A stretch of 64,000 bases of DNA from Proteromonas lacertae (taxonomy: Eukaryota), in assembly GCA_002245135.1 (NCBI GenBank), contig NGBS01001161.1, positions 62,001 through 126,000 of the forward strand, read 5' to 3'. Position numbers and translations under genes: made by a program. Positions 18,432 through 46,743 of the stretch are shown here, piece by piece. How positions within the stretch are numbered: the first letter of the stretch is position 1; every line of letters begins with the position of its first letter. A model generated the notes under the pieces. That model saw only the letters and a program-made list of their open reading frames with translations. It did not search any database and was not told the origin of the DNA.

Positions 18432-19570
18432 ATGGATTGCCCTCGTTTAAAGCTCAATAATGGAAGAGAAATTCCACAAATTGGTTTAGGGTATTGACTT
18501 ATATAGTATACTGACAGAACATGGAAAGGTCAAGGAAATGAAACAAAAGACGCTGTTGTGGCTGCTATTAAATGTGGATATCGTCACATTGATTGCGCAA
18601 TGTCATATGATAATGAATATGAGGTGGGCACAGCATTAAAAGAATGTATTCCTTCAATTATGAACAGAGAAGATTTATTTGTCACATCTAAATTGTGGTA
18701 TTATATATTTAATACTATTGATAATAGGATAAACGATTATGATGATGTTGAAAGTGCTCTAAGAGTATCTTTACATAAATTGGGTTTAGAATACTTAGAT
18801 TTATATCTTGTATATATATTCATAAGTTAATAACATTAATAGATGCATTGGCCAATATTCAAAAGACCTAAATGTAAGAGAGATCCAAAAGATTATGATC
18901 ATTGGTTTTTAGGTTTCAATGCAGAAACAGAAATATTGACTTATGATAAAGGATGGATTAACAAAGTATGGGGTGACTTGGAAAAGTGTGTAGAAAAAGG
19001 ACTAGTCAAAGCAATAGGTGTTAGTAATTTTTCAACAAGTAAAATCGAGAAGATTTTAGAATTTGCTAAAATATCACCAGCAATGAATCAAATAGAAGTT
19101 CATCCAGCTTTATCAAACGAAGAAACAATCAAATATTGTCAAAGTAAAGGAATACAAGTAACTGCTTATTCTCCTTTAGGTAGTTTAGATAGACCAGCTC
19201 ATTTTGTTGAGTATATATATTGTTTTTATTAATTAATTATTGTAACAGAGAAACAAGTCCCTGTTCCAATTAAAGATCCAGCTATATTGGAAATAGCAAA
19301 GAAACATAATAAAACACCAGCTCAAGTGATATTAAGATGGGACATTGAAAGAGGAATTTGTGCAATTCCAAAGAGTGTTCATAAAGAAAGAATTGAAGAA
19401 AATATCGATATATTTGATTTTAAATTGAGTGGTGAAGAGATAAGCAAGATTAATGGATTAAACACGAATGTATTTAATTAATCTACTCTTATTTTTATTT
19501 ATAGTCGAGAATCTTCAACGGAATGCACCACCTCCATAGTGAAACAGATGTAGTTAATTTATGGAAGTAA
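18432..19570 (+). CDS. Aldo-keto reductase (AKR1A/B-like), copy 1
   Basis: LNNGREIPQIGLGTW, GYRHIDCAMSYDNE, LDLYLMHWP, IGVSNF, AYSPLG, IPKS; five introns; apparent extra C near 19260. Confidence 0.92.
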
Positions 19571-19665
19571 TATTCTAATGTTATTATGTTATTTTCTTGT
19601 TGTGTCGTTTCATATCATAAGAATTTTCTCTTATATTCTCTATCTTAAATCTTTAATCTTGTGTG

Positions 19666-20724
19666 ATGAAGTGCCCTTATCCAACAATCAAACTTAACAA
19701 TGGAGCAGAAATGCCATTACTTGGCTTAGGGTATATCTTTTTTTGTGAATTACATCTAATCTTTTTATAGTACTTGGAAAAGTAAGCCAGGTGAGGTAAA
19801 GCAAGCAGTAATTGATGCTATTAAAGCTGGATACCATCATATTGATTGTGCTATGGCTTATGATAACGAATGTGAAGTAGGTGAAGCTTTAAAAGAATGT
19901 ATTCCGATCAGTTGTAAAAAGAGAAGATTTATTCATTCACAACAAAATTATGGTTAACAGACTTTGAACATGTAGAAGAAGCAATAAATTGTTCATTAAA
20001 AAGATTAGGATTAGATTACATTGATTTATATTTAATCCATTGGCCAATTTATTTAAAACCAAAAGATTTAAAGAGAGATCCAAAAGATTATAAACACTGG
20101 TTCCCAGGATTTGACTGTGCTTGCGAAACACATACTTATGATGAAGGATGGATAGTTAAATTGTGGAAGGATATTGGAATCTTTAGTAGAAAAAGGATTA
20201 ACAAAATCCATTGGTATTAGTAACTTCAGCAAATCAAAAATTGAGAAATTATTAGAAACAGCAAAGATAGTTCCAGCAATGAATCAAATTGAAATTCATC
20301 CTGCTTTAGCTCAAACTGAATTAATCGAATACTGTCGTAGTAAAGGAATTGAAGTGACTGCATACTCTCCATTAGGTAGTAATGATCGTGAAAAAGCATT
20401 TGTGAAAGATTCAAACCCAGTTCCATTAAAAGATCCAATAATTAACGAGATTGCTAAGAAACATAGCAAGACTGCAGCTCAAGTGATATTAAAATGGAAT
20501 GTACAAAGAAAAGTAGTGACAATCCCAAAGAGTGTTAATAAATCAAGAATTGAAGAGAATATCAATATATTTGATTTTGAATTGAGTGATGAAGAAATGA
20601 AGAAGATTGCTGATTTAAATACCAATGTATTATTATTATATATTGTATATTAAAATAGAATCGTATATTTATTGGTGAAAACTTCTTCTCCAAAGCTGAA
20701 GACAGAGAAAAATTATGGGCTTAA
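19666..20724 (+). CDS. Aldo-keto reductase, tandem copy 2, with ~3 apparent 1-nt insertions (assembly error or young pseudogene)
   Basis: Paralogous to copy 1 ([39 protein letters not shown]); frame breaks near 19906, 19937 and 20174. Confidence 0.85.
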
Positions 20725-20844: not shown

Positions 20845-21750
20845 TTATTTATTTTCTAGCAAATACTTTCTTCTTCTTTTTAATGAGCAATATTGACATC
20901 CACTTTTACCAGCTTTAAATCTTTCTCTAGACTTCATATTATGACATCTATTGCATCTTCTACCATTTACTATTTTTGAAGAACTTTCCCAATCCTTTAA
21001 GCATCTCCAATCTTTAATATTTATAGAACAATGTAAACAAATCATCTTATCTGAGTGTAAGTCATCATGACACTCATAAAACTGAAAACATTCATTTATA
21101 ATCTTTTTTTCTTTACAACAGAAGCATTCTACATATTGTTTCACATTAGAATTAGAATTTTGTCTATCTTCTTCTATGCATCCATCAACACTTTCGTTTT
21201 CTAGTTTTATCTTTAATCTTAACCTTTTCTTTTTTAAGAGACAGTGATCACAGTTTTTATTCTCATTTTTAAATCTAAAATATGATTTCTCTTTTTCACA
21301 TCTTACGCATTTTCTAGTTATTAAAGAATATGGCTCTTTTTCCCAGTCTTTTAGTAATCTAGAATCTGTTACATATGAAGAGCATTTTAGACACATTAAA
21401 TTATTCTTTGCATCCGTATTATCGTCACTAAAGATAAACATGTTTCTCATAATGCATCTTTTACCACAACAACAACAATTTCTTTGAGTTAAACTATAAT
21501 TAACTTCGCTTTTGCTATTCACTAAATTTTTTATTGTTTTTTCATCATCTTTGTTCATTTCATTTGTATCTTCATATTCCGCTGGGTAGAAAGCATCTTC
21601 AGTGTAAACATTACCATTGTGAGAATTATCAATAGCAACATATATATTGAAAGGGTCATTATCAAGAGTGCTATCATAATCTAACGGCGATAACTGAAGG
21701 TCTTCTAGATCATTTGTTACAATATTCTCCTCTGCTAGCTTGACATCTAT
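20845..21750 (-). CDS. Cys-rich protein with two tandem 8-Cys (four CxxC) zinc-binding modules and basic tails
   Basis: CCCC..CLKC..LKDWE..CVRC..RFK..CDHC.LKKKR repeated as CFCC..CLHC..LKDWE..CNRC..RFK..CQYC.LKRRRK; frame stays open upstream of ATG 21558 to ~21770. Confidence 0.7.
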   Translation of the reverse strand: MDVKLAEENIVTNDLEDLQLSPLDYDSTLDNDPFNIYVAIDNSHNGNVYTEDAFYPAEYEDTNEMNKDDEKTIKNLVNSKSEVNYSLTQRNCCCCGKRCIMRNMFIFSDDNTDAKNNLMCLKCSSYVTDSRLLKDWEKEPYSLITRKCVRCEKEKSYFRFKNENKNCDHCLLKKKRLRLKIKLENESVDGCIEEDRQNSNSNVKQYVECFCCKEKKIINECFQFYECHDDLHSDKMICLHCSINIKDWRCLKDWESSSKIVNGRRCNRCHNMKSRERFKAGKSGCQYCSLKRRRKYLLENK

Positions 21751-22486
21751 AATATCAGGTATTCGACATTCTCAGTGATTTATATCTTTTTCTATATTCT
21801 GATAGTTAAAAAATCAAATAAAAATTATATAGAATTATCAGCTACTACAAGTATAGTATAGCTAATGTTAGTTTATTATTACTATATGATTATAATTTAT
21901 GAAGAACTTTAACAATTTTTGATTGGATTAAATGACAAAGATGATTGGATGAATAAAAAAAGCTCGATTTTGTATATTTACACTAGTGTTTATTTGGCTC
22001 TACCGAATTTTACAATTATTATAAAATGTGTTTATCGACATACACATGATCTGATCTAAGTAATAGATACATGCTTATATTAAATGTGCAATGGAAACTG
22101 TGTAGATTCAAGCCAAAAAAACGTGAAATGCTAAGAAAATATTAAATTTGTATATTTGTCAGAACAATCAATAAGAATATGATGTTTATTATCTTTAATC
22201 TTTCATCAAAAAGACATTTTTCTTTTAATCTTGATTAATTCGATTAAATCAATTATTGAGCAGTAATAAACATAATAAACCTTTATTAAAAAAATAAGTA
22301 ACAAATTTTATAAAGAAGGTATAATTTACTCATCTTTTATTCTGAAATATTCTTTCATGTTGAATAATAATCGTAATGAACATCAAAATAGTGTTGAAAT
22401 ATGTGAATTACATAGTCAATTTCAAAACACAAAATTTGGATCATTATGTAACGATAATATTTTTTTAAAATAAAGTTAGACATCTA

Positions 22487-23169
22487 ACACTTTTATCTAC
22501 TTACCACTGATCATACTCTTGAATATATTTCCAGCTACATTAACATATGAACCCCAGTCTACTGAAGATTGTTGATGTGGCACATCTGTAGAAACTGTCA
22601 TCTTTGTTCTATTCACTAATGCATTCAAATCTGTTTCAAGTATGCAACCGTTGTCAATTATTTCATCAATAAGAAGTAAAACATATTTCAAATTATCGAA
22701 CAATGATCTTTTATCAATTGAACCACTATTCATATTAACAATATACGATTATATACTAGCAAATTGTATTTAATGCATCATAAAAAGACTCCAATAACGA
22801 AATCAAAAGCAAATCATTTTCACTATCGTTGGCTATCATGTATACAGTACATTCATTACCACATTTATAAGCTACTAAGTATGTATCAACTACAATTACT
22901 TCAGCTAAGACAATATATAAGCGAAGATACCATCAGAACGATTAACAATATTCTTAGTTCTATTAAAAATATTCTTTTCTAAGGCTTCACTTTCTTCAGC
23001 GTTTTTAAGGTATTTAGAAAAGTATTTTCTTACTATTTTCTCTCCAGTTGTATCAAGAATAGTAATGCCGTGGATATATGGAGCAATTGAGTTCTATGAA
23101 ATTATAAAAAATGTCAAATTCCATACCATTGCAATATAAATGATTGAAAAAGCAAGATGAAAAATATCT
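22487..23169. repeat. 683-bp direct repeat, left copy (partner 33239-33921)
   Basis: Sequence reads identically at an offset of 10,752 nt, from ACACTTTTATCTAC to AAAATATCT. Confidence 0.92.
22497..23129 (-). CDS. COPZ: Coatomer subunit zeta, copy 1
   Basis: Spliced MNSIAPYIHGITILDTTGEKIVRKYF...ENDLLL...IDKRSLFDNLKYVLLLIDEIIDNGCILETD; three introns, the first directly after the ATG. Confidence 0.88.
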
Positions 23170-23459
23170 TTCCATAGTTATAATATCTTTGATTTTAATT
23201 ATTAAAACTTTTTTCTATTAACATATATGTATGTTTATGTATAACAGTAAGAATATCGCTGTTAGTTCGATTTTAGTTGCAGAAAATTCTAATGTGTGAA
23301 TAAATTTATGGGTCAAAATTAATTTTTGTGTTTTTAATAGTTTGTAGTGTTGTAGATTAGAAAATAAGTGCATAAATAGATTAATTACTACTTATTCTAC
23401 CCCAATAAGTAGTGTTAATTCAAGTGTTTGAAGGTGAAAAATCTATGACAATAAATAAC

Positions 23460-24345
23460 CTATGATATTTATACTAATAATGCTTCGAATGTAAGTGCTG
23501 TAGAAGAGAGTATTAGTAAAGCTGAGATATTCAAAGCTAATACTTCGTTGTAGAAGATAGTAATACAGATAATATTGAATTATTTCAAAATCCTCAAAAT
23601 GTAACTTTCCCATCAGGAAAAGTAATGTCTATATATTTAGATGATAACTGGGTTAGGAAAAACACTTCACTTTCGTGTTTTGTGCCTTTCATTGTGCCTT
23701 TCACTCACCAAAACTCCTCATTAATTCTATGCGTCAATTTCATAAAGCACGGTATAAATTATGCGTGTTTTTTTTTGTCCCTACATTTTTTGTTTTAAGT
23801 TGTTGATTTTTTGTTGCTATTAGTTTATAATATCATTCAATAAGCAAATGCTCGAATTTAACAAAATATATCATAATATGAGGAATTTTTATTACTAATT
23901 TTATAACCATTTATTATATAAATTAGTATTTTTATGATGCGAGTTGGTTAAATTTTCATACTCCTATCAAATTATTAAAATATCTGTATACTTACTTGAA
24001 TATAGCTCTGACTTGATGCTTTAATAATTCTAAACTGACTGCTTTAAAAGAATTGATGAAAACTAATTGTTTATAGAATTGATATTTATCTTTCAATCTG
24101 AAAGGAAAATGTGTAATATATATGAAGAAAAATTTGGTAAAATAGGTGAAGTAACAACAATTAATGGATATAATGATCAGAATTTTATGAAAGATAGAGT
24201 AAAAATGAATGTATATTACACTAAAGATAGAAAAATTGCAGAAATTCTAGAAAATGTTATACAAAGAACATTATTTAAATATGGAATTTTATTAGGCAAA
24301 GTATATAGTATAGTATCAGATAATAATAATAGCTTATTCAGAATT
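23460..24345 (+). mobile_element. Degraded hAT-superfamily transposase-like relics
   Basis: IAEILENVIQRTLFKYGILLGKVYSIVSDNNNS (~24235-24333) resembles the hAT catalytic strand (aenl...l..ygi...v.sivtDNaaN); DIYTNNASNV at ~23464-23493 resembles the same TDNASNM motif; no intact ORF or TIRs seen. Confidence 0.45.
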
Positions 24346-24368
24346 CATAAATCTTTGTCGTTTGTAAC

Positions 24369-27300
24369 TCAGAATAAAACCTCATCATCATCATCATCAT
24401 CTTCTTCTTCTTCCATCTTTTCTTCTTCCATCTTTTCTTCTTCCATCATTACTCTTTTCATCATTACTTCTTTCATCATTACTTCTTCCATCATTACCTC
24501 TTCTCTTAATTGATAAAACAGTATATATGGAAGGAAATTAGAATAATATTCTTTATTATTCTCCACATCATATTCATTCATTACTTTATTATTATCAAAT
24601 AAATACCATTTATTATCACAAGAACACTTACATATTGAAATATAATGACTGTTTTCGAAACAGTAACTTGACATTCCAATTAAATCATATATTTTCCTTT
24701 CTTTATCTATTGAAAATAAAATATAATATATAAATATACTTTTCATATAGTCAGTTAAATCTAATACATCACAGATATTAACAACTTTTCGTATTACCTC
24801 ATTCTTATCATCAAATCTCTTCAAATGAATTATTAAGATTTTTGGTGTTATATTAATAACACATTTAGAGTAATTCAAACAATCTTCTATATGTATGTTT
24901 TCATCATCAGGTATTGCAACTGATAAACCATATGGCTGTTCATTATTATCTATTCCAAATAAATCATCTATTATATTTTGATTTTCACTAAGAGTTTTTA
25001 ATAGTAACTCCAAATATGCATATGCATCTTGTTGTTTATTAACTATATTACATTCTTTTATTGCTATATTCACAAGATCAAATGCTTTTTTCATATAAGT
25101 TTGATTGTCATCTTCTTCATCATAATATCTGTATTGGTAACAATTTGCGAAAAAATCTAGTAATGGTATGATATTAGCTAAACATCTCAATATCGACTTT
25201 ATATAACTACTATCACCATCATTTGGTTGTTGTTGTTGTTGCTGCTGTTGTTGCTGTTGTTGTTGTTGTTGTAGTACAGAAGTTGATGCTGATGTTGGTA
25301 TATCACTATCATCTTGTAGATTAATTTCTTTCTCATCTCCAATTTCTATCATGATTTCTTTTCCATATACTGAATTACCAAATTTGGATTTACAGTATTT
25401 AATGGCTGTTTTATCTAGATGTATATCTCCTATATAATGTGAAACTAATACTTTTGTTTGCAAAGGTGATGAAACAGATGAACTATTATTGGATACTACA
25501 ATATAATATATATTATTAAATTGCATTATCTTTTTCAAAGCACATATACACTCTTTAATCTTATAATCATAATGTGACACTTCTCGTTGATTATTTATTA
25601 CATGAATAAAACAGTTATTCATCAAATAAATCATTTCTCTATTCTCAAGAGTTGCTAAATGAAGTAAATATATTCCTTCCTTTTTTGTAGAATATATATC
25701 TACATCAAATAATTCTTTAAAAGTTGTAAATTGATTTTCATTAATTGCAATAATTTCAAATACCTCATTGATTTGTCTTTCAATTTTTTTAATCTCTGTA
25801 TTATATAAACAGTTGTAAAATACTAGTTCTTCAAATAATAACTGAAATAATTGATGATATTTTTCACTATAAATGTCATTAAAAATTCTTTGAATTTCAT
25901 TAACATCTTCTTTTTCAGCTTTGTGTTTAATATTATAGTATACAAAATCAAATACTTCATCAGAAATAAACTCCATTTCATCTTCATTTATTCTATCATA
26001 ACATTTGGTTGAATTATCTTCATCTCGAAAGGGAATAGAATACTTTACTATATAATGGCATAATGTACTATCAAATGTTGCTGTTCTTTTGGATATTTTA
26101 TCGCTTTTAGATTCACTTGGAAACAGATATTTCATTAGAAATTCTATATACCCAAGACCACCTATTATTCTTTTTATACCTATTGAGTATAACTCATCCC
26201 AGTAATTTTTACCATAACAAACATCATATATTGCTGAATAATAGATATGTCTTGGTACATTCCCATATCTCTTATTATATTTATTATGTATGATTGATTT
26301 TCTCAATGTTGTTGGTAAACACTTTTCTTCCCATTCTAATATTTCATCATTGCTAAATACATCCATAAAATAGTATATTTTATTAGGATTACCTTCATCG
26401 AAATTCTTATAATTCTTATAATCTGGTGAAGTAATATACAATATAATTGAAGCATTTGCAGTAGCTTTATCTAAGTCATATGAATCTGATATAGCTATAT
26501 CAGATAGATGATTATCATTTAATCCATACACATATTCTCCTTTTAATTGATACTGAGTGCAAATATCCTTTTGTGCACTTTTAAATATCGATGCCTTAAT
26601 TTTTAAGGTAGCTTTATCTTCTTCAACTATGTTTTGCAATTCAATATTCTTCTCTTGAATTCTTTTATTCAATTCAATGATGTTCTGTAATAAAAATATT
26701 ATAAAAGAGGTTTTTCCACATCCTGGATTTCCTCTCAATAAAATCTTAAAACCTTCACCTAAATTGAAATCTTTTCCATTTTCAGACTTTTCTATTTTTC
26801 TTTCTAAAACTCTATTGTTTAATTCATCAAGAACTTCTTTTTTCTTCTCATAGTCATCGATTTCATCAACAGTTTTCTTAAATATATGCATAAACCTTTT
26901 CATATTCTCTTCATTATCTTTTTCAATTAATTCATTTATAACCTTAACAATAATATTAATCTTATTTACATCTTTACTTTTATCACTATTTATTTTGAAA
27001 AATAATATATAATATTTTAATTTATTCCATATATCTTTATAAACATTTCGGATATACACTCTATTTTCAGGATATTGATATATTTCACATCCAATGCTTA
27101 TTGTATTATTATCATTTATAATCACTGGTTTTTCAAATATTCGACATAAAGCATTCGTTTCTATAATAATAACAATAATATATAATATTATATACTCTTA
27201 CATGGTGAACAATAATCTTTTAGACTTCCTTTCATTGTTTTAATTGCATTATATGAAGATATTAATTCATCTTTATAATCTTTACTAGTAATCTCTTCAT

Positions 27301-30300
27301 TATCAACATGTATCTCGGATAATAACTTATATTTACTATCTTCATTAATAGTCATGTGTAATTCAGATATTAACTTATCAATATTTTCTCTATTAGCATC
27401 ATCAGGTAATTCAGATAATAAATCATATACATATTGTTTTGAAGATTGAACCAGTAATGTTAACAATGACTTTTCTATATTTACTTTACATCCATCATTA
27501 GGTAATTCTAACAACAACTTTTCTATATGTTCTTTACTTCCATCAACAAGTAATTCAGATAATACTTTAATTTTACTCTCTTCATTAATAGTGATAAGTA
27601 ATTGTGATAATAACTTAATTTTTATCTCTCTATTTATAGGAATAAGCAATTGTGATAATAATTTGACTTTTATCTCTTCATTAGTAAGAATAAGTAATTC
27701 AGATAATACCTTACATTTTCCATCTTCACCAGTATTATTACCATCATGTAATTTAGATAATAAAAAATTATTACTCTCTTCATTAGTAAAAAGTAATTGT
27801 GATAATAACTTAATTTTTATCTCTCTATTTATATGAATAAGTAATTCGGATAATACCTTATTTCTATACTCTTCACTAGTATTAACAAGTAATTCGGATA
27901 ATACCTTACATTTTACATCTTCATTTATATGAATAAGTAATTCAAATAATAACTTAATTTTTATCTCTCTATTTATATGAATAAGTAATTCGGATAATAC
28001 CTTATTTCTATACTCTTCACTAGTATTAACAAGTAATTCAGATAATAACTTATTTCTATTCTTTGTATTAGCAAACAATTAGTAAATCTGATAGTATTTT
28101 ATTTTTACTCTCTACATTAGAAATATTGAGTATTTCAAATAATGTTTGATTTTTACTCTCTTCACTGGTATTAACAAGTAATTCTGATAATAACCTATTT
28201 CTATTCTTTTCATTAATTTGTAATGAAGATAATAACTTATTTCTATTCTCTGTATTAGAAACAATAAGGATTTTGAATAATATTTCATTTTTCTTCTCTT
28301 CAATAACAAAAGCAGGTAATTTAGATAATAACTCATCTATGTATTGTTTGGAATCTTCAACAGACAATATAGATAATAACTTTTCTATGTATTCTTTACT
28401 TGCACCAACAAGTAATTCCAATAATAACTTATCTTTATCTTCTACATCAATATCAATAGGTAATTCAGATAATAACTCATTTAAGTACATTCTAATATCA
28501 TCAACAGGTAATTCAGATAATAACTTTTTACTTGCATCATTAGGTAATGTTAATAAAAACTTTTCCATATTTTCTTTACTTCCACCGACTAATTCCAATA
28601 ACAACTTATTTCTATTCTCTTCATTAATAGGAATGGGATAATTTAGATAATAATATATCTATGTAATAATTAGTTGAAAAAATAATTGTATCTGATAATA
28701 ATTTATCTTTACTTTGTTTATTAATAGTCATGTGTAATTCAGATATTAACTTATCAATATTTTCTCTATTAGCATCATCAGGTAATTCAGATAAAAATAC
28801 ATCAATATACTTCTTTGAAGCTTCAACCAGTAATGTTAACAATGACTTTTCTATATTTACTTTACATCCATCATTAGGTAATTCTAACAACAACTTTTCT
28901 ATATGTTCTTTATTTGCATTAACATGCAATTTAGATAATAATACATCTAAGCAATCATTACCAGCTTTAACGAGTAATTCCATTAATAATTTGTCTCTAT
29001 TCGCTGCATTAAAAGGATAGGTTAATTTAGATAATAATAACTCATTTATACACTGTTTAATGTCATTAATAGGTAATTTAGATAATAATTCATCTATATA
29101 ATTTTCAGAAGGAATAGTATTTCCAATAAATCTTTTCATTTGTATTACTTTATTATTATTTCTCTCTAGTACTATACTTTCATTTATCTTCCTACATACA
29201 CTTTCAATATTATTTATAATTCTTTTAGTTTGTTCTGTTATTTTTAATTTACTTTCAAATTTACTCGATAAATATGTAATTAAACCTTCGTATGGAGTTA
29301 TAGTTTGTAACAAACTGTCAGTAGTATCAGTTTGAATAATACTTTTAAAATATTTAACCAATTTTTTGATTTTCTTTTCATGACTGATTGTCTTTTTTAT
29401 AGGTTCTTTAATAAGTAAATTTGAATAGTCTCTTGGTTTGAATACTAATGTTTTCTTAGCAGTATAACTTTTCATTGATGGAGAATCTTTTGTTGCAATA
29501 TCAAACAATTCTTTTTTAGAAATTTTTAAATCATTAAGTCTTAGTCTTTTTGATTTTATAGATATGATAATATTTTCTGGCTTTACTTCTTTTTCATTGT
29601 TCTTATTTTCATTTACTTTTGTCTTTTTATTAGAAGGCTCCATATTCCTGTTATAAGTCTTTTCCATTTCTTGAATCATTAGTTCTTTAAATATTTTTCC
29701 ATATTGTCCAAAATTAGCAGAACCCATTTCAGGTGGTTTTACAACATTATCATGTTGATAAGTAATAAATACTATTTTAAATAACGGATTACACATCTTC
29801 AATTTGTTCTTTAATTCCTCTTTTAATTTATTATCTTTTACAAAACCATTTTCATCATATATTAGATCTGTCTCTTCTTTAATTTTCTATAATAATAATA
29901 ATAATAATAATATATATACTAAAATAATCTGTTTCTTCATATCTTTTTTTTTACTATTATCACCCAAATAGCAGTATATAATATCAATTAAATAATCATC
30001 TAAATCATATAATAACATTGTTTTTATTTCAGAATTTATATTATTCTTTACATATTCATTTGCTTCTTCAAGATCGAATATACTTAGCAATTGAAGTTGA
30101 TATTGTAATAAAGCATATTCATTATTAAAACATATTAATCTTTCATCTGCATCAACTTTTCTAAATTCATTAGTTTTTTCTTTAAGTAATTTTTCATCGT
30201 AATTATAGTTTGTAACATCTAATTTTATTGTTTCATTTAGATAATTCAATGAAATATGTAATAAATTTCTTACATATGATTCTAATGGTTGATCATTATT

Positions 30301-32599
30301 ATTCAATGTATAATTACTGAAACATAATAATGATTTTATCAATTTCTGTATTGTATGGAGGTAGTATTTCAATAACTCTATTTTTCCACATACTTGTTTT
30401 AATTTTTCTAGATTATTTTGATAATTTGCTTTACTTTGATATTCTGCAAGTTCATCCTGAATTGCTTTTAATGCATTGAACTGATTTTTTAACAACGAAA
30501 CTAAATCATTCAATCCAGGAATTGATTCATTGGGTTGTAAATCATTTATGAAATCATTTAACCGATTATATAATTCATTTAACATTACTAATTTATTATG
30601 TAATTCTTTTAATAGAGAAAAGTATCCAGATTCTTCCAGTAATCCTAAATGTGAGGAAAAAAGATTATCTACTGTAAATATTTGTTTAGATAGTTTATCT
30701 TCTAATCCATTTACATTAACCTTCAAGTTATGGACTATGGTTTGAGCTGTTTCATATGCTTCTATTTTCTTTGATGATATTTTGTAACAATATAATTTAA
30801 TTGATTCTTCTGATTCTTTTAATAATACACAAATACTATCCACAACATTCTTAAAAATGAATAATTTCGTTTTAATTTCATATGCCTCAATTGGTTCAAC
30901 CTTAATTTCTTTGTTTTCTTTTAATCCTTTTAATTTACTGCTATATTCATCAATTTTGCTTTGTGATTCATTCAATTGTTTTTGGAAATTATTTAATTCT
31001 TTATTTAATGTTTCTAATCTACTTTCTATTAATTTTACATTTGATGAACCTTTAACAAGTAATCTACTATCTAATTCTTCAATTTTTATCGTATCACCAT
31101 ACATAACTTTGAGTAATTCTTTCTTTCTCTCGGGATTATAGTTGTTAATTAAATCAGAGTTAATGTTTTTTCTACAGTTAAGTTCATTGATTAAAAACTA
31201 TACACAGTAAAAACATATTATAATATACAAAACTTTCACATAGGATTCTTTTACGTTCATCCATTTTAAATATTATATTTTTCTTTAAACTGCTTGGTAT
31301 ATAGCCAAGATCATAAAGTGACGATTCTCGGTTAAACTCTTTTGGATATGGCTTAGGAATAGGTGGATTTAATATGTAGTTTATCATCACATCCTTATGA
31401 AGATTGTATATCATCTATTCAATTATAATATTATATATAAATACATTGAGAAATACAATTACAGTATCTATTACAGAATGATTATCTGCTATTGTCATTT
31501 GAAGGGATGTAATATTGAATTTATTGATAATACAACCATCAATTGCTGGGAAATCTTTAATTATACCAAAATCAACATACATTGCATCTACATCTTCATT
31601 CTTGTCATTACGTTTAACAAAATATTTTGATTTAGAGTTAAAATACTCATCAAATTCACTCAATTTATGATGATAACATACATCTTTAGGAATATATATA
31701 TTCTCATCAGTAATTAGCTTATTCCTTACAATAATGTGACACATTCTTTCAAATATTATTCCTTCGCTTTGATCCTTAAATAAATTACATAATTGTAGTA
31801 ATTTATCTTTACTAATGAAGTATGTAACTAAAATTTCTCTTTTTATTTCATCTGATATAAACTTTATCCTATCTGCAATTACATCTACTCTTTTAGTATC
31901 ATATATATAAAAAAGATCATTGTATGATGGTGGTATATATGCAGGTAAACCATCTTTCTCTGGATTAAATGTTGTGTCATTTATATTTTCTTTTAATTCC
32001 TTCAATTTCATGTTAGTGTTTATAATTTCTTCTGTTGTGAGAGGTAATAAATAGAATTGTACTGGAGCTCTTTTATTACTCATTACCTTATACTTTTCTG
32101 CTTTTGGTGAAGATACCATAATAACTATCTCATCATTACTGAAGTCATCTTCTTTAATGGGAAAATTATCACTAATTATTATTGTTCTTCTGTTAGTAAA
32201 AGGTAACTTTTCTGATATTTTATATTCTACACCATATGCTTCTCTAAAATGATATATCGGTTCATCTTTCTTTGAGTCACTGAAAAGAACAATGTTATAT
32301 TCCTTAAAATCTTTATCCATGTTGAAACAATAAGCTAGAAAGCAGCAGAATGTTGTTTTACCTATTTTATGGTTGCCATACACCAAAAAGCATTTTTGAT
32401 ATTTAGAGGAACTTCTTTTCTTTATAACACTTTTCATCTCATAGTAAATACGAATAAAACAATCTCTAACTAATATGAAAGGTTCATCACAACAATAGAA
32501 AGCATTGCCCTTGTAACCCTTCCTTTCTACTAGTTTTATTTCGTTTATATCAGTATATGTTATAGATGTGGATGATTCCATAACTGAATTAACACACAA
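24369..32599 (-). CDS. Giant Crinkler/RHS-type (CR) multidomain protein: NTPase-REase, coiled coil, 16-aa repeats, second NTPase, polyQ, pseudo-USP, acidic tail
   Basis: ORFs 31415, 31184, 29887, 28624, 28068, 27188 and 24369 join through in-phase GT-AG introns (~31415-31444, ~31198-31228, ~29887-29919, ~27162-27195, 24707-24739) plus two 1-nt frameshifts (~28635, ~28075). Motifs: YGNHKIGKT, VSSP..YK, IFERMCH..DFPAIDG..LQMTIADNH, RGNPGCGKT, ITSPDYKNYK, YGNVPRHI. Confidence 0.75.
27290..29100 (-). repeat. Coding tandem array of ~48-nt (16-aa) units, consensus like NEESKNKLLSELLVNT
   Basis: Recurrent ...AATTCAGATAATA...; 144-nt periodicity near 27810/27954; ~190-bp block duplicated at ~27345-27536 and ~28721-28912. 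Confidence 0.85.
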
Positions 32600-33238
32600 A
32601 CTATATCAAGCTTTTGATAATAAAAAACATAAAAATTAGAAAAAAATACTCATTATTATTATGTACTTTATACGGTTTTGTTTTATATATTGCTTTACCA
32701 TGTCATTTATTCTGGAGTTATTCTTCCATCATCTGTTTAACCAATATTTATTAACCTGAGATAAAGAAGGTGGGTATAAAACAAGAAGGATGTCCTTTCT
32801 TGTTCATCTGCTTCTTCACACTCCATTATCCTCTTCTCTTTTAATTTTATTCCATTATACCATTAATTCACTTTATGAGCTATTCATCTGGTTACAGCAA
32901 GAATTACTTTTGTTATTACTCTTTTACTTTATGATATGATAAGTAATTTCATTTTATATATGTGAATTATTATTGTTATTTTTTGAAAATATGTATAATG
33001 TCAGTTATTATTATATTTGTTAAATGAAATATATACTCTTCACCGCTAGTATACTTTTTCTTACATTTTACACACTTTCCCCTTTAATGAGATAATAAAA
33101 TATGAGAAATTATTACAAAATTTACAATGAATATGTTTATCTTCATCACTTACTGCGAATAATTATTTATTATTATAAGCTTAAATCAAAATATACATAA
33201 AAAAATTACAATAATAATAACAATTAATAATGACTTCT

Positions 33239-33921
33239 ACACTTTTATCTACTTACCACTGATCATACTCTTGAATATATTTCCAGCTACATTAACATAT
33301 GAACCCCAGTCTACTGAAGATTGTTGATGTGGCACATCTGTAGAAACTGTCATCTTTGTTCTATTCACTAATGCATTCAAATCTGTTTCAAGTATGCAAC
33401 CGTTGTCAATTATTTCATCAATAAGAAGTAAAACATATTTCAAATTATCGAACAATGATCTTTTATCAATTGAACCACTATTCATATTAACAATATACGA
33501 TTATATACTAGCAAATTGTATTTAATGCATCATAAAAAGACTCCAATAACGAAATCAAAAGCAAATCATTTTCACTATCGTTGGCTATCATGTATACAGT
33601 ACATTCATTACCACATTTATAAGCTACTAAGTATGTATCAACTACAATTACTTCAGCTAAGACAATATATAAGCGAAGATACCATCAGAACGATTAACAA
33701 TATTCTTAGTTCTATTAAAAATATTCTTTTCTAAGGCTTCACTTTCTTCAGCGTTTTTAAGGTATTTAGAAAAGTATTTTCTTACTATTTTCTCTCCAGT
33801 TGTATCAAGAATAGTAATGCCGTGGATATATGGAGCAATTGAGTTCTATGAAATTATAAAAAATGTCAAATTCCATACCATTGCAATATAAATGATTGAA
33901 AAAGCAAGATGAAAAATATCT
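33239..33921. repeat. 683-bp direct repeat, right copy
   Basis: Matches 22487-23169. Confidence 0.92.
33249..33881 (-). CDS. COPZ: Coatomer subunit zeta, copy 2
   Basis: Same exons and introns as copy 1; head-to-head with CFAP251. Confidence 0.88.
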
Positions 33922-39360: not shown

Positions 39361-42300
39361 TTACTTACTTGCTTTCTTACTTCTACATCTCATTATCATA
39401 ACAATTGCTACACCAACAATTATACCTCCACCAATAACACATCCAATTACAATTCCAGTTATTGCACCAGAATTTGTACTGCATTCATCAATTTCAGGAA
39501 ACCATCTTGCTTCTTCATTATCAATCAATTTACATTCACGAGATTTATACCCAGAACTCATTCCTTCACATTTTTTTAATCCCAACTTTCCTACTGGAGT
39601 TTCTGGATAACCATCTTCAGCTTTACAAGATAATGGTTTAAATTCTACTTTCATTTTCACACTTGTTTCTTTAACACCATCAGATACAGTAAATGTATAT
39701 TCTTGAAGACTTTGAGCACTTTGAACCATTCCAGTTATTAATCCTGTTGTTGGATTTAATTCTAATCCTTCTGGTAATGCTATTAAAGAAATATATAAAT
39801 GAAGAATATTATTAAATACGAGGAGTTACTTTATATTCTAAGTTTTCTCCAACTGCATCAAATAATACAACATTTATTAATCCTGAAGATGAGTATGAAA
39901 CAGAAACACTTACAACTCCATCACCATCAGTTGTACTATCATCTGGTATAATGATTACTGGCTTTTCAGGCATAACAACTGTGATTCTAATATTAGCATT
40001 GGCTGTTCTACTACCTGTTATTGTTAAATGATATTCTTTTTCATTCATTCCACTTTGAGCATATCCAGATAAAAGTCCTGTTTTTACATCTAATGATAAT
40101 TTGGATGGTAAATCTATTTAAATTAAAATAAAATAAAGAAATTAATACTTGGTGTAATTATATAAGTTAAATTCTTACCAGTTACATTTAACAGTTCTTT
40201 ATTATCCATCTTATCACCTGCTGTAATTATTATACTACCAGGATTAGAAATAATAATTGGATAATCTGATATTGTCACTGATATTTTGATATCTCTTTCA
40301 GCTACTTTTTCTGTATCATTTGTAAAACATTTCACTTTATATGATGTTTCAGCTATCTCTCTCATTGTTGTCTTTCCTTTTAACATTCCATTTTCAAATG
40401 ATATACCTTCTGGTAATTTACCAACTAATTCATATTTTATATCTTTACCATAACATTTAATTATTTCATTTAATTCATAATTTTCAAAATAATATAATTC
40501 TACATTTGGACTAAATCTAGCGACTATTGGGAAATCAGAAATTGAAAATTTCACTTTGACAGAATATTCTACAAATCCATTTGAATTACTTGCTTTTACA
40601 CTGATTTCAACTGTCTCTTCTCTAAAATATTGACCAAATAATGTTCCTGTTTCACTATTAAGATGGATTCCATCAGGTAGTGTTTCAACTTCATTATAAA
40701 CAACATTTTCTCCAACTATTTTTGAGAATACTATATCTTTGAAATTATCACCTACATAAAGATCTATAGTTTCATTCAAATAAAACAAATATGGTTTATT
40801 TGAAGCAACTACTTCTAATTGTATCTTTATATCCACATCTCCATTTTCACTCTTAGCTGTAATTGTATATTCTTGTTTTGGAGTTACCTCAAGTGGTCTT
40901 CCTTGTAATTTTCCATTTGAATCAACTGTAATACCATTAATAGTTGGATTAATTGTATATTCAGTAATACTACCAAATACTGTGAATAAAACTAAATCCT
41001 TCACTGTATCTCCTGTGGTAAATGAATATTCACTTTCTTGATATGATACTATTGGTTTTTCTTTACAATTACTTGATAATTCTTCCCATTCTGGTTCAAA
41101 ACCATTTGGACAATATAATACTCTTTTTCCTGAATCACATTCCTTTGTCACTATTGAATTTGAATATGTTTCTTCAACTACACCTGCTATTGCTGCACAT
41201 TTTGTAACAGGACATATCATATATTGAATTTCTCTTATATACATAAAATACATTGCAGGTTCCCAATCAGTTAAACTTCCTACATATTCAGGAGTTGTAG
41301 TTTTAATTTTTGACATAATAGTTGTTTTCTCTTCATACAAATTTGATTTAATTGTTGGATATTCTGTTGAACCATATTTGATGTTTATATAATCATCACT
41401 CGTCTTATGTAAAACATCAGCAGTTTTATCATCATATGTTGTGTAACTTACATCCATCTTCTTAGGATGTGTAGTAGTATCAGTAATTAAATTGAATTGA
41501 TTAAATGTTCCATATGTATTTTCAGGGAATGACACTTCAACATATGGAATAACAGTATCTTTATCTGCTTTTGGAACTTCATGCTGCCAAAATGTGTTAA
41601 CTTTATCATCAAAAGCTTTAGTAGCTCTATTAAGTCCTTGTTCAGCAGATTCTATCAGTCACTGTTGTATATTGATTCAAATGAAGACAATCATCAGTAG
41701 CTAATAATAATAAATAATAGTGATATTATATATAAATACCATCCTTTAGTAATAATTTTGCCATTGAATTAACTTGTGGTTTGCCTTCTTCATTATTTAA
41801 TCTATGTAATTCAATTGCTATTGTATTTGGATTTGTTTTTATTAAATTTGATGGAATTATTAATGATATATCTTTTAAAGTATCAAATCCTTTATCTGCA
41901 AATGTATCAGCAGTTATTTCACTTCTATTATTATATTATATATATATATATATATAATATTAATATATAATACTCTGGCAAATTTCTAGTGTATATTTTT
42001 TCTCCATTTATATATAAGATAATTCCACTTTTATGACCAACATTTAGTTTTAAAGCAATTTCTTTGCTTAAATCTGGGAAATCTTTAATAAGTCTTAGAT
42101 AAACAGTTGTTGTTGAATAATCTGGTAATTCTGATAATTTATATTCAGTCCAACTCTTTTTAGCAGTTTTACTATTCCATCCTTCAGAATAAGTTGTTGA
42201 ATATTCCCACTTAGCTGATAGAAAATACAAATAAGTAACTATAATATAAAATATAGAATGAAATATATACAATCATATTCTTTCATAACTTCATATTGAC

Positions 42301-45300
42301 CCCAACTAAATCTTCCAATTGCATCTAATTTCACATGTCCTTGATATGTTTCAATATACATACAATAATCATTTGAATTTTTATCTGCGCTTATTACTTT
42401 TGATTTATATTTATCTTGTGGTAAACACATACTAATTTCATGTTGTTCATTTCCATCAAATGAAAATTGACTTATACTATAGATTTCTTCTTCTTTACTA
42501 TTCTTAAGTGAATATTCTATGCAAGATCCTACAGTTGCTGTTTTTACTTTAATTCTGTATAGTATCTTGTTTTCATTACTACATTCAGTTGTTATATTGG
42601 ATGAAATTACTTCTAACTTCAAAGTTGTTTTATATTCTCCTGCATTATTTGATGCTGTTATTGTATATTCAGTTAATGGAAATACAGCTGTTGTTTTACC
42701 ATATATTCTTCCATTTGTCGTATTAAATACCAAACCATCAGGTAATTTCTTATCTATTGTTGCTATTTCAAAATAAACTTCTGATTTTGGTGCTATATAA
42801 ATATCTTGATCAATATAGAGTTTATGGGATGATGGGTTATATGAGATAATAGGTTTTGATATTTCAAAATTCAATACATACTTCATATAGTTTTGATTTA
42901 TGGAGGTGAAATGAAGCACTTTCATTCCATTCAAATAGAAATCAGAATTCATTGTTTCGTAATTATTATAATTTGTTGATATTAGACCAGTGTATAGCAT
43001 ATATTTTCCTGGAACAAAACAGAATGATCTATGCACAGGTAAATCTCCAACTTCTTGATAATAAGTACTATATTTATCAAAAGTTGTTATACCTTTAACA
43101 TCTTGAAATCTAACACTAATTGTCTTATATTGTTTATTCCATGTTGAATCAATTATATGATACATCATTACTTCTCCATCTGCACATCCATTTACAACAT
43201 AAAATAAAACTGATTCAATGATTTGATCATTCTCTGTTACACCTTTCGCTGTTATTTTAAGGGATAATCCATTAGCTATACTTCTAGGAAATGCTGTTAA
43301 AGTAAATATCTCATTGTCATATGAAAATCCTGGCGGTAATGACTCAAATGAATATGAAATTGCCATTCCATTTTCAGTTGATAGTAAAAATTGTTCTCTT
43401 AAACCTAATGTTAATCTTAATTCAGTTGATTTTTCACCAGTCTTTATATTGGTAAAATAAATTCCATTAACTTTTAAAGTGCCTTGAATTGTGATATAAA
43501 TTGTTGATGTGTAGGTCTTATCATCACTTGAAGTTGCTATTACATTGTATTTTTGTAAAGTAATTCCTTTAGCTCCTTCTGCTGGAATTCCTGTAATCAT
43601 ACCACTGTTCTTATTGATTGATAATCCTTGTGGTAAATCAATATCTGTTTTAAATGATTTAAATGTAATTTCATTGTTATATTTCTTAACTATATTTTCA
43701 TTAATTGCTAAACCAACTGTATATGTAGCTATTGGAGTTTCATATTCAAATATTTCATTGTTTGGAACATAATAATACATGGAATCTGGTACTAATTCGA
43801 ATTTTTCTCCACCTTTCTTCTTATATTCTAAAGCAATACCACTTGGTCCATTCTGTTGAACATACATAATCTTTAAATTGTATGAGTCATCATTTAATGT
43901 AAATACACCTTGAGCTGATGTATAATTGTGACATCCACTGTTATCTACTACCAACTCATTATTAATATATAACCAACTAGCATCACTGGATGATAATTGA
44001 AACTCATATTCACCTGCATCAGCTGCTTTATTTATTCTTATATAACCTTCCCAATAAACTGCAAAATCTTGATAAAAATCTTTTCCTAAACCAGCCCATA
44101 ATATCTGTTTCTCACTTAACTCATGATTTGGATTCTTTTCTATTCTTGCGACTTCTGTTTCGGTATTACTCATTGATGTATCATATGGAGTATTACATTG
44201 TCTATCAAATGATGATATTTTCAAATAATATCCAACAATCCCATTGAATTTATGTTCTATTAGTATTTACATAAATAACTATTATAATATACCTGTAACT
44301 CTTAAGGTGAATATGACTGTATTAGTAATAGAATACTTATTTGAACATGTAAGGTGATAGGTTTTTGGAATTTCTAATTGTTCTTGTGGATTTCCTGAAA
44401 TAGAATTCTTTTTAATTTCTAAACCATTAGGAAGTGTTTCACCATCATTAAACTTACAGGTATAATCTTCTGAACCAGTTATTCTGAAATTAACTGTAGA
44501 AACAGCATCATACAATAACACAAACTCTGATTTTTCCATTGATAAGTCATAAACTGGATGAGCTTCAGAATCATCTATTAAATAGATAATATATTTAATA
44601 TGTATATACGAGTTGTGAATGATATTACTGATGGAGATTCATCACCTGGCTTTTTATATAAGAAATTGAATATCCAAGAACAAGTTTTTTTATTATATGG
44701 TATAAAAGAGAATAGTTGAATATAAACTACATGTTCTCCTGCTGATAAATCTACACTAATAGTCTTGCTTACTGTATTAGCAACACATTCTTCAGTGTAT
44801 AATTTGGGTATATCTAAATCATCTATAAATACTTTAATAATCATTCCTTCACTTATTGTAGCAATAAATTCATATTTTCCTGTATTATCAATGTCAATAT
44901 GACCTTCAAATTCAGCTGTAAATGAATAAACCTCACTTGCAGTAATACCTAATTTCTTATACCAAGTATAATAATATGAATCAGCTGCATCTAAACCAGA
45001 TAAATCTGGTATAATTTTACTGTATGATTCTCTAACTGTAACATCAATGTTATTATCATCACAATCCTTTTTATCTAAGGTATTAAATTTAACCCATACT
45101 CCATTTTTATCTTCAGCATTAACATGTTTTAATAATATTGTAGTTGTTTTAATACCAGCACCATTAGTTGCTTTAACTGTCAATGTCACATCCATATCTT
45201 CATGATAATTAGTAAAAGAAAGTATTCCTGTTTTGGAATCTATGGTAATACCTTTAGCTGAAGAAGGATCTCTCACAATGTCATATAAAACAGGTTGACC

Positions 45301-45622
45301 ATCAGCCTTACATGTGAATTGCTTATTAAATACACCAGAAATGCTTAATTCAGTAATACCACAGTCTACATATGATGGAGCAATTACATCATTTGCCATT
45401 TTTGATGTCTTTTTATATTCATAGTCATTTCTATGTTCTAAATCACTGGAGTGTGAATTTGCAACACCTGCATAAACTTTTCTCAAGTAGTAATTGCCAT
45501 GATCTCCTCTTTCAGCTGTTGTTGCTGTTGCAACTTGTCCAACTACAACACAGATAGCTATATTATAGATAAATCGTTACTATACTGAGTAATAATTCAA
45601 GATAGAATGAATAATAATTCAT
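39361..45622 (-). CDS. Large type I surface protein with PA14 domains and putative Ig (He_PIG-like) repeats
   Basis: Signal-like N-terminus; PA14 motifs (FAVYWEGYI..AGEYEFQLSSSDASWLYIN; FEGHIDIDNTGKYEF); repeated LP.GL...TG.I.G.P; C-terminal TM GAITGIVIGCVIGGGIIVGVAIVMIM and basic tail; ~8 introns, one indel near 41650. Confidence 0.82.
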
Positions 45623-46009
45623 GTTATATTTTGGCGTGTTTAGGGGGTATTGTTATAACTTCCATATTTTTAAATTGGTTTGTGTGAATTTTTGGTACTC
45701 CAAAAAATATAATATTCTAATAAGGATAATTTAAAACTGTCATAACCTGTAGGTTACATATATATGTGACTGTTCAGCTTATAAGCATTTACAGAAACAA
45801 ACGATTGGTTGTAATCTAGTGTTTTTTGTGTTAATCTTCATATAATCATGATTGTAATTACATAATTATGCTATGTATATCATTCTAAACATATATATTC
45901 TACTGATTTTTGTTATAAAGAAGTTAAAACTATTTTCATCATAACAACAAAAAATATATATAGAAATAATATATTTCCATTAATTGAATAAAATATTAAA
46001 AAAAATAAC

Positions 46010-46743
46010 TTACCACTTTCCTGAATAACGAGATTCTGGAATCTTCCAAGGATATGCTCTTCCCGGAACTGGTGGTAAACCCTTGCTAATATAATCATCA
46101 ACAATAGATCCAGCTTCTTTTTCCCACCACTATATCAATAAAACAATAAAAAATATATATAAATACTTCATGTGGTAGATGATCTGGTTCATGTGCTTTG
46201 CATAATGTCTCAAACTCTTTATCACTAATAGATTTAACAAATGGAGCTAAATCATCCTTTGTTTTTACTGAATGAATATAACCTTCTTTTGGTACAACCC
46301 ATTCTATTACTTGAATATGTTGAGCTTCTCCTGCATTCCACATATGCTTCAATTCTGCTTTATAAGAACTTGGAATATGTTTATTATCTGGATTGTAAAT
46401 AACGTTGATAACTTCTGGTCGGCATTGTTGTCTATCCAATTCATGGTGATAGTTGTATCCAACATAGGGATTTCCTTCACGTGGAACAACAGGATGTTCA
46501 TTAAATGAACGATCTCTATTAATTATTGTATAATATAAAAACAATACATTGGCGATGGATAACGAAAGCCTTTAGATATTGAACCAGGTGGATTTCTGGA
46601 AGGGATTATAAAAGTGGGATGAAATGTTACATAATCTTTAATCTAACAGCATTATATAAGTATTAAAAATATACCTTCTTGTATGTTTTATTTTTGATAA
46701 TCTTATCACAAAGCTTGTCAGCTGCTTTAAATAACTTATCCAT
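46010..46743 (-). CDS. Probable complex I accessory subunit NDUFA7/B14.5a-like protein
   Basis: Spliced reading includes GFRYPSP...NPY...and a C-terminal GLPPVPGRAYPW, recalled as similar to fungal/plant NDUFA7; similarity is weak. Confidence 0.45.

Follow-up and report, generated by a model that had tools for sequence, protein, structure and literature searches.

Crinkler/RHS-type (CR) proteins combine a nucleoside triphosphatase (NTPase) with a restriction endonuclease-like (REase) domain, a classification that reportedly goes back to Zhang et al. 2016. This NTPase+REase core is already known. We analysed a 64,000-nucleotide stretch of Proteromonas lacertae DNA (contig NGBS01001161.1, positions 62,001 to 126,000; hereafter the window) in which seven open reading frames (ORFs) on the minus strand, covering 24,369-32,605, encode two CR-type NTPase modules, the first with a predicted nuclease domain and the second with a conserved one predicted to be inactive. 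The locus is likely one intron-containing gene, read into a single transcript. Our preferred reading, which we consider to have an even chance of being right, is that it encodes one intracellular CR protein in which the first NTPase gates a DNase and the second module regulates it in cis, the whole serving genomic conflict. Four features were not found in print in the literature searched: dissimilar twin modules, a conserved atypical second domain, a remnant of a ubiquitin-specific protease (USP) and a host gene as flanking repeat. Our literature search found neither a tandem Crinkler NTPase with a deubiquitinase (DUB) nor a tandem inactive CRN/REase with a pseudo-DUB; the primary CR classification may describe tandem modules. 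The literature on Blastocystis and Crinklers, judged by title or abstract start, held nothing on such genes, and the word Crinkler does not occur in PMC10690189.

In CR proteins toxicity is ascribed to the REase, which the NTPase is held to regulate (PMC5289972). The present locus resembles them in its STAND-like P-loop NTPase, helical part and predicted REase-like domain, in its ESM Atlas neighbours, which are fungal, trypanosomatid and oomycete CRN/RHS clusters, and in the CR NTPase motifs of both modules (Walker A and B, followed downstream by S/T-S-P and Arg motifs). It differs in carrying two dissimilar modules in one reading frame, a second nuclease-like domain without the catalytic motif, an extra repeat array and a USP remnant. 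No Ubl/LxLFLAK or other header was found, in contrast to the N-terminal Ubl header with LxLFLAK and DWL/HVLxxP of classical oomycete CRN effectors. The CR C-termini named in the review are Ulp1-like, trypsin and zincin peptidases, with no USP among them (PMC5289972). Trypanosomatid RHS proteins are likewise a lineage-restricted intracellular family (PMC8311971) and are close in Atlas features; unlike them, the locus has introns and a twin module, lacks a Pfam RHSP or RHS_N match, and showed no retrotransposon insert. In Wolbachia CifB (CidB/CinB) and Tribolium Medea1, CR-related REases stand in tandem, active and inactive alternating, are often paired with or fused to a DUB, and have a selfish or conflict role (PMC11342252). 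CifB has four REases in tandem, its core lacks an NTPase, its Ulp1/OTU-type DUB is active, and its antidote CifA is encoded upstream (PMC11342252), whereas the present gene has two NTPases and a USP predicted to be dead, and no antidote gene was identified; the resemblance is an analogy of design, with no sequence link found. A header-degenerate Crinkler-like gene of fish has been reported as a selfish element (PMC12957317).

Gene structure and frame breaks

A preliminary description of this DNA, made from the letters alone, had joined the seven ORFs into one reading. Four of the six joints are AT-rich GTAT..TAG introns of 30, 31, 33 and 35 nucleotides (nt), all of whose phases lead correctly into the next ORF, so that the reading runs to about 2,680 codons counted from Met 32581 (Table 1); the other two joints, however, did not bear it out in the same way. 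The four introns match the norm of the window, where canonical GTA..TAG introns occupy 19 of the 27 joints between adjacent ORFs of at least 100 amino acids (aa). A fifth candidate, in frame and 33 nt long, lies within the USP region (24739-24707). We also considered a stop made by poly(A) addition between the modules; the signal TGTTTGTT occurs once in the locus, inside module 2 and not at the boundary, and this candidate was rejected.

At the remaining two joints, near 28,640 and 28,075 and both within the repeat array, no canonical intron was found. Non-canonical introns were also considered. One joint offered none, and the other only a 55-nt GTAGAG..AAAG candidate, which was rejected since it overlies obvious repeat coding sequence. 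By our reading, the 8 of 27 window joints without a canonical intron comprise five frame breaks and three antisense or gene-end shadows. Two of the breaks are those of the locus, and three lie in neighbouring genes, namely the second aldo-keto reductase (~20170), whose paralogue is uninterrupted where this copy is broken, an ABC transporter (~60800) and an unnamed gene (~1830). At this background rate 0.69 breaks would be expected in the locus, and the probability of two or more is 0.15. The 7,881 coding nt are free of nonsense codons. Since 6.8% of substitutions would create one, this places neutral drift of the locus under about 0.6%. Because three neighbouring genes carry similar breaks and nonsense codons are absent, the two frame breaks are most simply explained as assembly errors. 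The breaks in the neighbours suggest uncorrected indel errors in this assembly, a point to weigh whenever a frameshift or pseudogene is claimed from it.

The two CR-type modules and their relatives

The sequence motifs quoted in the preliminary description are all present: GNHKIGKT, FE..FPAIDG..LQMTIADNH, GNPGCGKT, TSP, GNVPR and a run of 15 Gln. Module 1 keeps the set E..D..QxT..H, which we take to be a PD-(D/E)xK-like nuclease motif. A HMMER search of 1.84 billion representatives identified 14 module-1 relatives with 30-51% identity, all in Logan assemblies. The family conserves the Walker A, hhhhD, SP and KR motifs, and in the 11 sequences that cover the nuclease part E and D are each kept in 11 of 11 and Q and H each in 10 of 11. 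Nine of the 11 relatives aligned in alignment A1 end just after the site of intron 1; since P0010 reads through this site and matches exon 2, intron 1 and its splice are common to the relatives. In the language-model features of the ESM Atlas, module 1 scored 0.97 to fungal clusters, among them one with the name Crinkler; its scores to trypanosomatid RHS and oomycete Crinkler were 0.92 and 0.89, and shuffled sequences reach 0.95 once in 100. Module 2 scored 0.91 to CRN/RHS clusters. The AlphaFold model of module 1 had a pLDDT of 61.5 overall, with the nuclease part modelled at low confidence (pLDDT 33-60) as alpha-beta-beta-beta. Foldseek matched this model to STAND NTPases (Avs5, E 3.5e-4), and the VIA Z scores were 9.0 for Pex1/6, 8.8 for NLRP9, 8.7 for a resistosome and 8.6 and 8.5 for AVAST5, in searches that covered residues 8-242, short of the nuclease part. 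No REase structure was among the fold matches listed for either module model, a result that does not exclude the fold.

Around residues 190-215 of module 1 about 20 residues of a helical lid (the FGGNL segment), present in most relatives, are lacking. The module-1 family is without the G.PR arginine that module 2 retains. The clusters P0013 and P0024 represent a shorter relative (293-320 aa), an NTPase without a recognisable nuclease motif, and one of the two has 21 members across many assemblies. Other searches returned little. Within its own length class, a word-indexed search with exon 1 found none among 1,938 candidates, and one with A1 found two among 7,995 scored. Related loci were sought by pattern matching, with none among 253 and 304 matches in JGI metagenomes and none among 217 in viral contigs. 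None of 10 window ORFs was present in the protein collection by exact-sequence look-up. Scans of PHROGs, PADLOC, NCBIfam and PDB sequences gave weak P-loop matches only, and the viral structure library gave generic AAA matches only.

Module 2 is, as judged from its sequence, a distant relative of module 1. The two are 22% identical, and hhalign aligned them at 95% over the NTPase only (119 columns). Three clusters are related to module 2, with 37-41% identity, and Walker A, SP and GN.PRH are kept in all four sequences. The region downstream had been described as an eroded second REase. We found instead that it is conserved in all three relatives over the part that each covers (two stop close to the same point, the third before it), with F[EQ]E[LF] in 4/4 sequences and YLMNNC.IHV in 3/3 that extend to it, and it is therefore not decayed. 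FPxxDG and QxT..H are absent from this otherwise conserved region both here and in the three relatives. The domain is predicted to be a pseudo-nuclease from its position and a weak helix/strand pattern. The model of module 2 was poor (pLDDT 44), and Foldseek and VIA gave generic P-loop matches only.

The N-terminus bears on where the protein would act. Met 32581 aligns with residue 1 of P0001, P0002 and P0015, and the sequence upstream (32,600-33,300) gave no significant tblastn match to 44 fetched proteins (best E 2.5). These results speak against the decayed 5′ end that had been proposed; the gene may be complete and header-less, ORF-called starts being weak evidence. No LxLFLAK, DWL or HVLxxP header was seen by eye in exon 1, in the upstream translations or in the 14 relatives, and there was no hydrophobic N-terminus or transmembrane segment (maximum Kyte-Doolittle value 1.43 in a 19-residue window). 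The absence of an LFLAK header and signal peptide, as first described, was thus upheld, also by the lack of a Crinkler Pfam match. An intracellular role had been rated as plausible as a secreted one; with no header and no signal, intracellular action is favoured, and the parity was not retained. Export by an unconventional route, as an effector directed against an animal host or gut competitors in the manner of oomycete CRNs, seems very doubtful to us. Membership of the CRN/RHS class as a lead, the diversity of CR headers, which are mostly without signal peptides (PMC5289972), and the existence of REase + DUB effectors in Wolbachia CifB (PMC11342252) would fit it, whereas the NTPase that begins about 35 residues after the Met with no N-terminal header, the size of 2,700 residues and the predicted inactivity of the USP would not.

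The twin design may recur elsewhere. P0001, the best module-1 match, and P0025, the best module-2 match, each lie on one contig of 4,788 nt, and an exact size match arose by chance in 1.7% of simulations with 22 module-1 and 6 module-2 contigs, from which the short NTPase-only clusters P0013 and P0024 were omitted. Both ORFs fit on 4,788 nt with 1,101 nt to spare. This circumstantial evidence suggests that P0001 and P0025 likely share a contig and that a probable second genome has the twin design, which gains support from it; the order module 1, linker, module 2 may thus characterise the family. In P0025, moreover, module 2 is preceded by 258 open helical residues and by an intron-like stretch that stands where the 35-nt intron lies here.

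The relatives also bear on an alternative, in which two or more adjacent CR genes from different subfamilies, or the parts of a loose chimera, only happen to share a reading frame. Here gene A would comprise module 1 and the coiled coil, and gene B a basic header, the repeats, module 2 and the USP remnant. The low identity between modules fits this layout, as do the module-2 relatives P0027, P0028 and P0030, which begin with Met exactly at the module boundary, the charged NLS-like stretch in mid-gene, which resembles the N-termini of P0003, P0004 and P0021, and the tail-to-head CRN arrays described in Phytophthora (PMC5289972). However, once the introns are taken out, the modules are separated neither by a stop in frame nor by an intergenic gap, P0025 is open ahead of module 2, and the Met starts of ORF-called relatives may follow an intron stop. 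We regard separate genes as unlikely.

Several observations weigh against a single CR protein with two nuclease-type modules. The top VIA row is an AAA+ protein (Pex1/6), and the STAND call is thus not unique. The nuclease of module 1 is predicted from motifs, a low-confidence model and Atlas features. Pfam RHSP/Crinkler had no match in the seven ORFs, 12 A1 members and 9 further relatives, and RHS_N was likewise unmatched; the Crinkler/RHS assignment of the preliminary description stands as a lead, from Atlas features, P-loop fold and motifs, and not as a family match. The profile comparison aligned the NTPases only, so it does not show the C-terminal domain of module 2 to be an REase. The shared contig of P0001 and P0025 was inferred from equal size alone, and the P0025 linker has no similarity to the linker here. 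The 22% identity, the Met starts at the module-2 boundary and the charged N-terminal extensions of most module-1 relatives, which are like 29,113-29,886, are all compatible with separate genes.

Repeat array, USP remnant and proposed function

The linker in exon 3 leads into a charged region and an array of about 37 LLSEL-type repeats, 32 of which fit the anchor pattern. The array had no significant Pfam family or PDB sequence match. It holds a 256-nt internal duplication with 90.6% identity, from which it appears to have been shaped by recent unequal exchange.

Downstream of module 2, the USP reported in the preliminary description was confirmed as a homologous region but not as an intact enzyme. 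It matched Pfam UCH with E 1.4e-15 over about 237 residues only, and PDB sequences of the peptidase C19 members USP4/11/15 with E down to 6.5e-9. The sequence NDGDSSY aligns to NLGNTCF of USP4 and places Ser at the catalytic Cys position, and the start of the Cys box is replaced by poly-Gln. The His box and Asp/Asn are kept (SHY and WYLFDN align to HY and WYYFDD). The remnant is predicted to be catalytically inactive because of the Ser for Cys, the poly-Gln at the start of the Cys box and the length of about 237 residues. Neither poly-Gln nor USP was seen in the three module-2 relatives, which are ORF-caller products in which a later exon is possible. The novelty claimed for the USP fusion is weaker accordingly.

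The degenerate USP boxes could also be read together with the two frame breaks and the exact flanking duplication, which looks recent, as marks of a very young pseudogene or decaying selfish insert in which the breaks would be genuine and both the dead USP and the pseudo-nuclease products of decay; among trypanosome RHS genes, pseudogenes make up about 60% (PMC8311971). We consider this quite unlikely, since 7.9 kb without a nonsense codon, the same kind of break in housekeeping neighbours and the conservation of the atypical module-2 domain at 37-41% identity in relatives all argue against it.

In our preferred reading of one intracellular CR protein, the STAND-like NTPase of module 1 would act as an ATP-driven switch that gates the predicted PD-(D/E)xK-like DNase. 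Module 2, with its NTPase and predicted inactive nuclease-like domain, would be an in-cis regulator or sensor, a role suggested by analogy with the active/inactive REase pairs of CifB. The repeat array may be a fast-changing helical spacer or binding surface, and the USP remnant a recently captured non-catalytic add-on. The role in genomic conflict would be either attack on invading DNA or selfish persistence.

Table 1. Features of the twin-module locus and its flanking repeat (window coordinates; motif positions as read on the minus strand)
Feature	Position	Strand	Remark
Seven ORFs	31415-32605, 31184-31414, 29887-31197, 28624-29886, 28068-28658, 27188-28078, 24369-27197	minus	
Exon 1: module 1, STAND-like CR-type P-loop NTPase (putative) and REase-like core	31445..32581	minus	
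Walker A GNHKIGKT	32377-32354	minus	exon 1
Walker B-like IISD, then SSP and NKR motifs	32179 (IISD)	minus	exon 1
REase-like core: E; FPAIDG; LQMTIADNH	31750; 31552-31535; 31504-31478	minus	
Intron, 30 nt	31415..31444	minus	position common to relatives
Exon 2: end of REase-like domain	31229..31414	minus	SLYDLGYIP matches P0010
Intron, 31 nt	31198..31228	minus	
Exon 3: helical/coiled-coil linker	29920..31197	minus	no family match at curated cut-off
Intron, 33 nt	29887..29919	minus	
Charged region with basic stretches KKTK, KSKRLRL	29113..29886	minus	presumptive nuclear localization signal (NLS)-like
Array of ~37 LLSEL-type repeats, 16 aa (48 nt) each	27290..29112	minus	both frame breaks inside
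Intron, 35 nt	27161..27195	minus	intron-like stretch at equivalent spot in relative P0025
Module 2: second CR-type NTPase and conserved C-terminal domain	25330..27160	minus	without D..QxT..H
Module 2 motifs GNPGCGKT; ISDS; TSP; YGNVPRH	26732 (GNPGCGKT); 26267 (YGNVPRH)	minus	
Poly-Gln, 15 residues	25227..25271	minus	abuts USP Cys box
Shortened USP (C19) domain	24510..25223	minus	with recognisable His and Asp boxes
Acidic tail of EEVMM type (15-nt tandem repeat), then stop	24369..24503	minus	
Left copy of exact 683-bp direct repeat	22487..23169	minus	whole coatomer/adaptor small-chain gene with introns
Right copy of 683-bp repeat	33239..33921	minus	head-to-head with WD40 gene

Flanking repeat, neighbourhood and meaning for the family

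Repeat comparison of the window revealed an exact 683-bp direct repeat on either side of the gene, which the preliminary description had missed. The repeat starts 40 nt ahead of the ATG of a coatomer small-chain gene and ends 10 nt past its stop codon; the last exon of this gene matches Pfam Clat_adaptor_s (E 4.6e-4), and we take the gene to be zeta-COP-like. The copies are 10,752 nt apart, a multiple of 512 and probably so by chance, and the 10,069-nt stretch between them holds the locus. Since the copies are identical and the remaining tandem paralogues of the window share no more than 66-68% identity, the duplication is very recent, converted or an assembly artefact. Template-switch duplication, circle integration or a collapsed tandem array would each give this pattern, and the repeats would allow the 10-kb unit to amplify or loop out by ordinary homologous recombination. 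No terminal inverted repeats were found at the ends of the insert, where the longest exact inverted match within 60 nt was 8 nt and internal, and none of the insert ORFs scanned matched a transposase; the features of a cut-and-paste transposon or Helitron were thus lacking. The GC content of the insert is 24.1%, compared with 26.9% outside, and its GC content at third codon positions (GC3) is close to that of the neighbours.

We give little credence to the idea that the twin CR gene maintains itself as a mobile unit in a lineage of gut protists. As an NTPase-gated nuclease whose pseudo-nuclease regulator is built in, it would, without terminal repeats, enter the chromosome or multiply there by duplicating a whole host gene (683 bp) as its flanking repeat, and would acquire host domains, the USP among them, in the process. 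Also improbable, if not quite to that degree, is a domesticated nuclear housekeeping factor like trypanosome RHS2/4/6, which associate with RNA polymerase II (PMC8311971). The Atlas proximity of module 1 to RHS clusters would be consistent with such a factor, as would a neighbour-like codon usage (GC3 0.13-0.20 in the gene and 0.12-0.15 in neighbours) and intron positions conserved across relatives. However, the relatives are only 25-41% identical with swapped linkers and tails, the repeat array changes fast, and the gene sits within a fresh duplication.

The window itself is eukaryotic, gene-dense and 26.5% GC, with short GTA..TAG introns of about 30-44 nt; 30-nt introns are reported from human isolates of Blastocystis, and low GC with longer introns from tortoise isolates (PMC10690189). 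In these traits it resembles the gut stramenopiles of the Blastocystis/Proteromonas group, and the gut protist of the preliminary description is plausible. Among the other genes of the window are those for aldo-keto reductases, for a WD40 protein and for ABC and MFS transporters, as well as a large multi-exon gene (39364-46571, minus strand) with several He_PIG (putative Ig) and PA14 domains, likely a surface protein. Older tandem duplications affect the aldo-keto reductase genes (18450-20650, 66%) and ABC domains (58200-62900, 68%). In a 308-aa ORF (20845-21771, minus strand) a Cys-rich, zinc-finger-like unit occurs twice and the tails are basic; this ORF had no Pfam or PHROG match. Inside the insert, a 148-codon ORF (24067-24513, plus strand), whose 3′ end is antisense to the tail of the giant gene, and coding-like fragments upstream of it (23443-23798, plus strand) had no significant family match.

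Should the modules prove to have separate transcripts, or the repeat to be an artefact of the assembly, the locus would be an ordinary pair of divergent CR genes. If the mobile-unit reading were true, it would provide direct evidence that eukaryotic CR genes live like transposons, as has been proposed. The relatives, 14 clusters for module 1 and 3 for module 2, come without exception from unannotated assemblies of sequencing runs and point to an unnamed, lineage-restricted family. For CR proteins an origin from mobile NTPase+REase elements has been proposed, with action both within cells and in hosts, and intracellular, header-less cases have been little studied. The family found here pairs an apparently active with an apparently dead nuclease module, which echoes the design of CifB.

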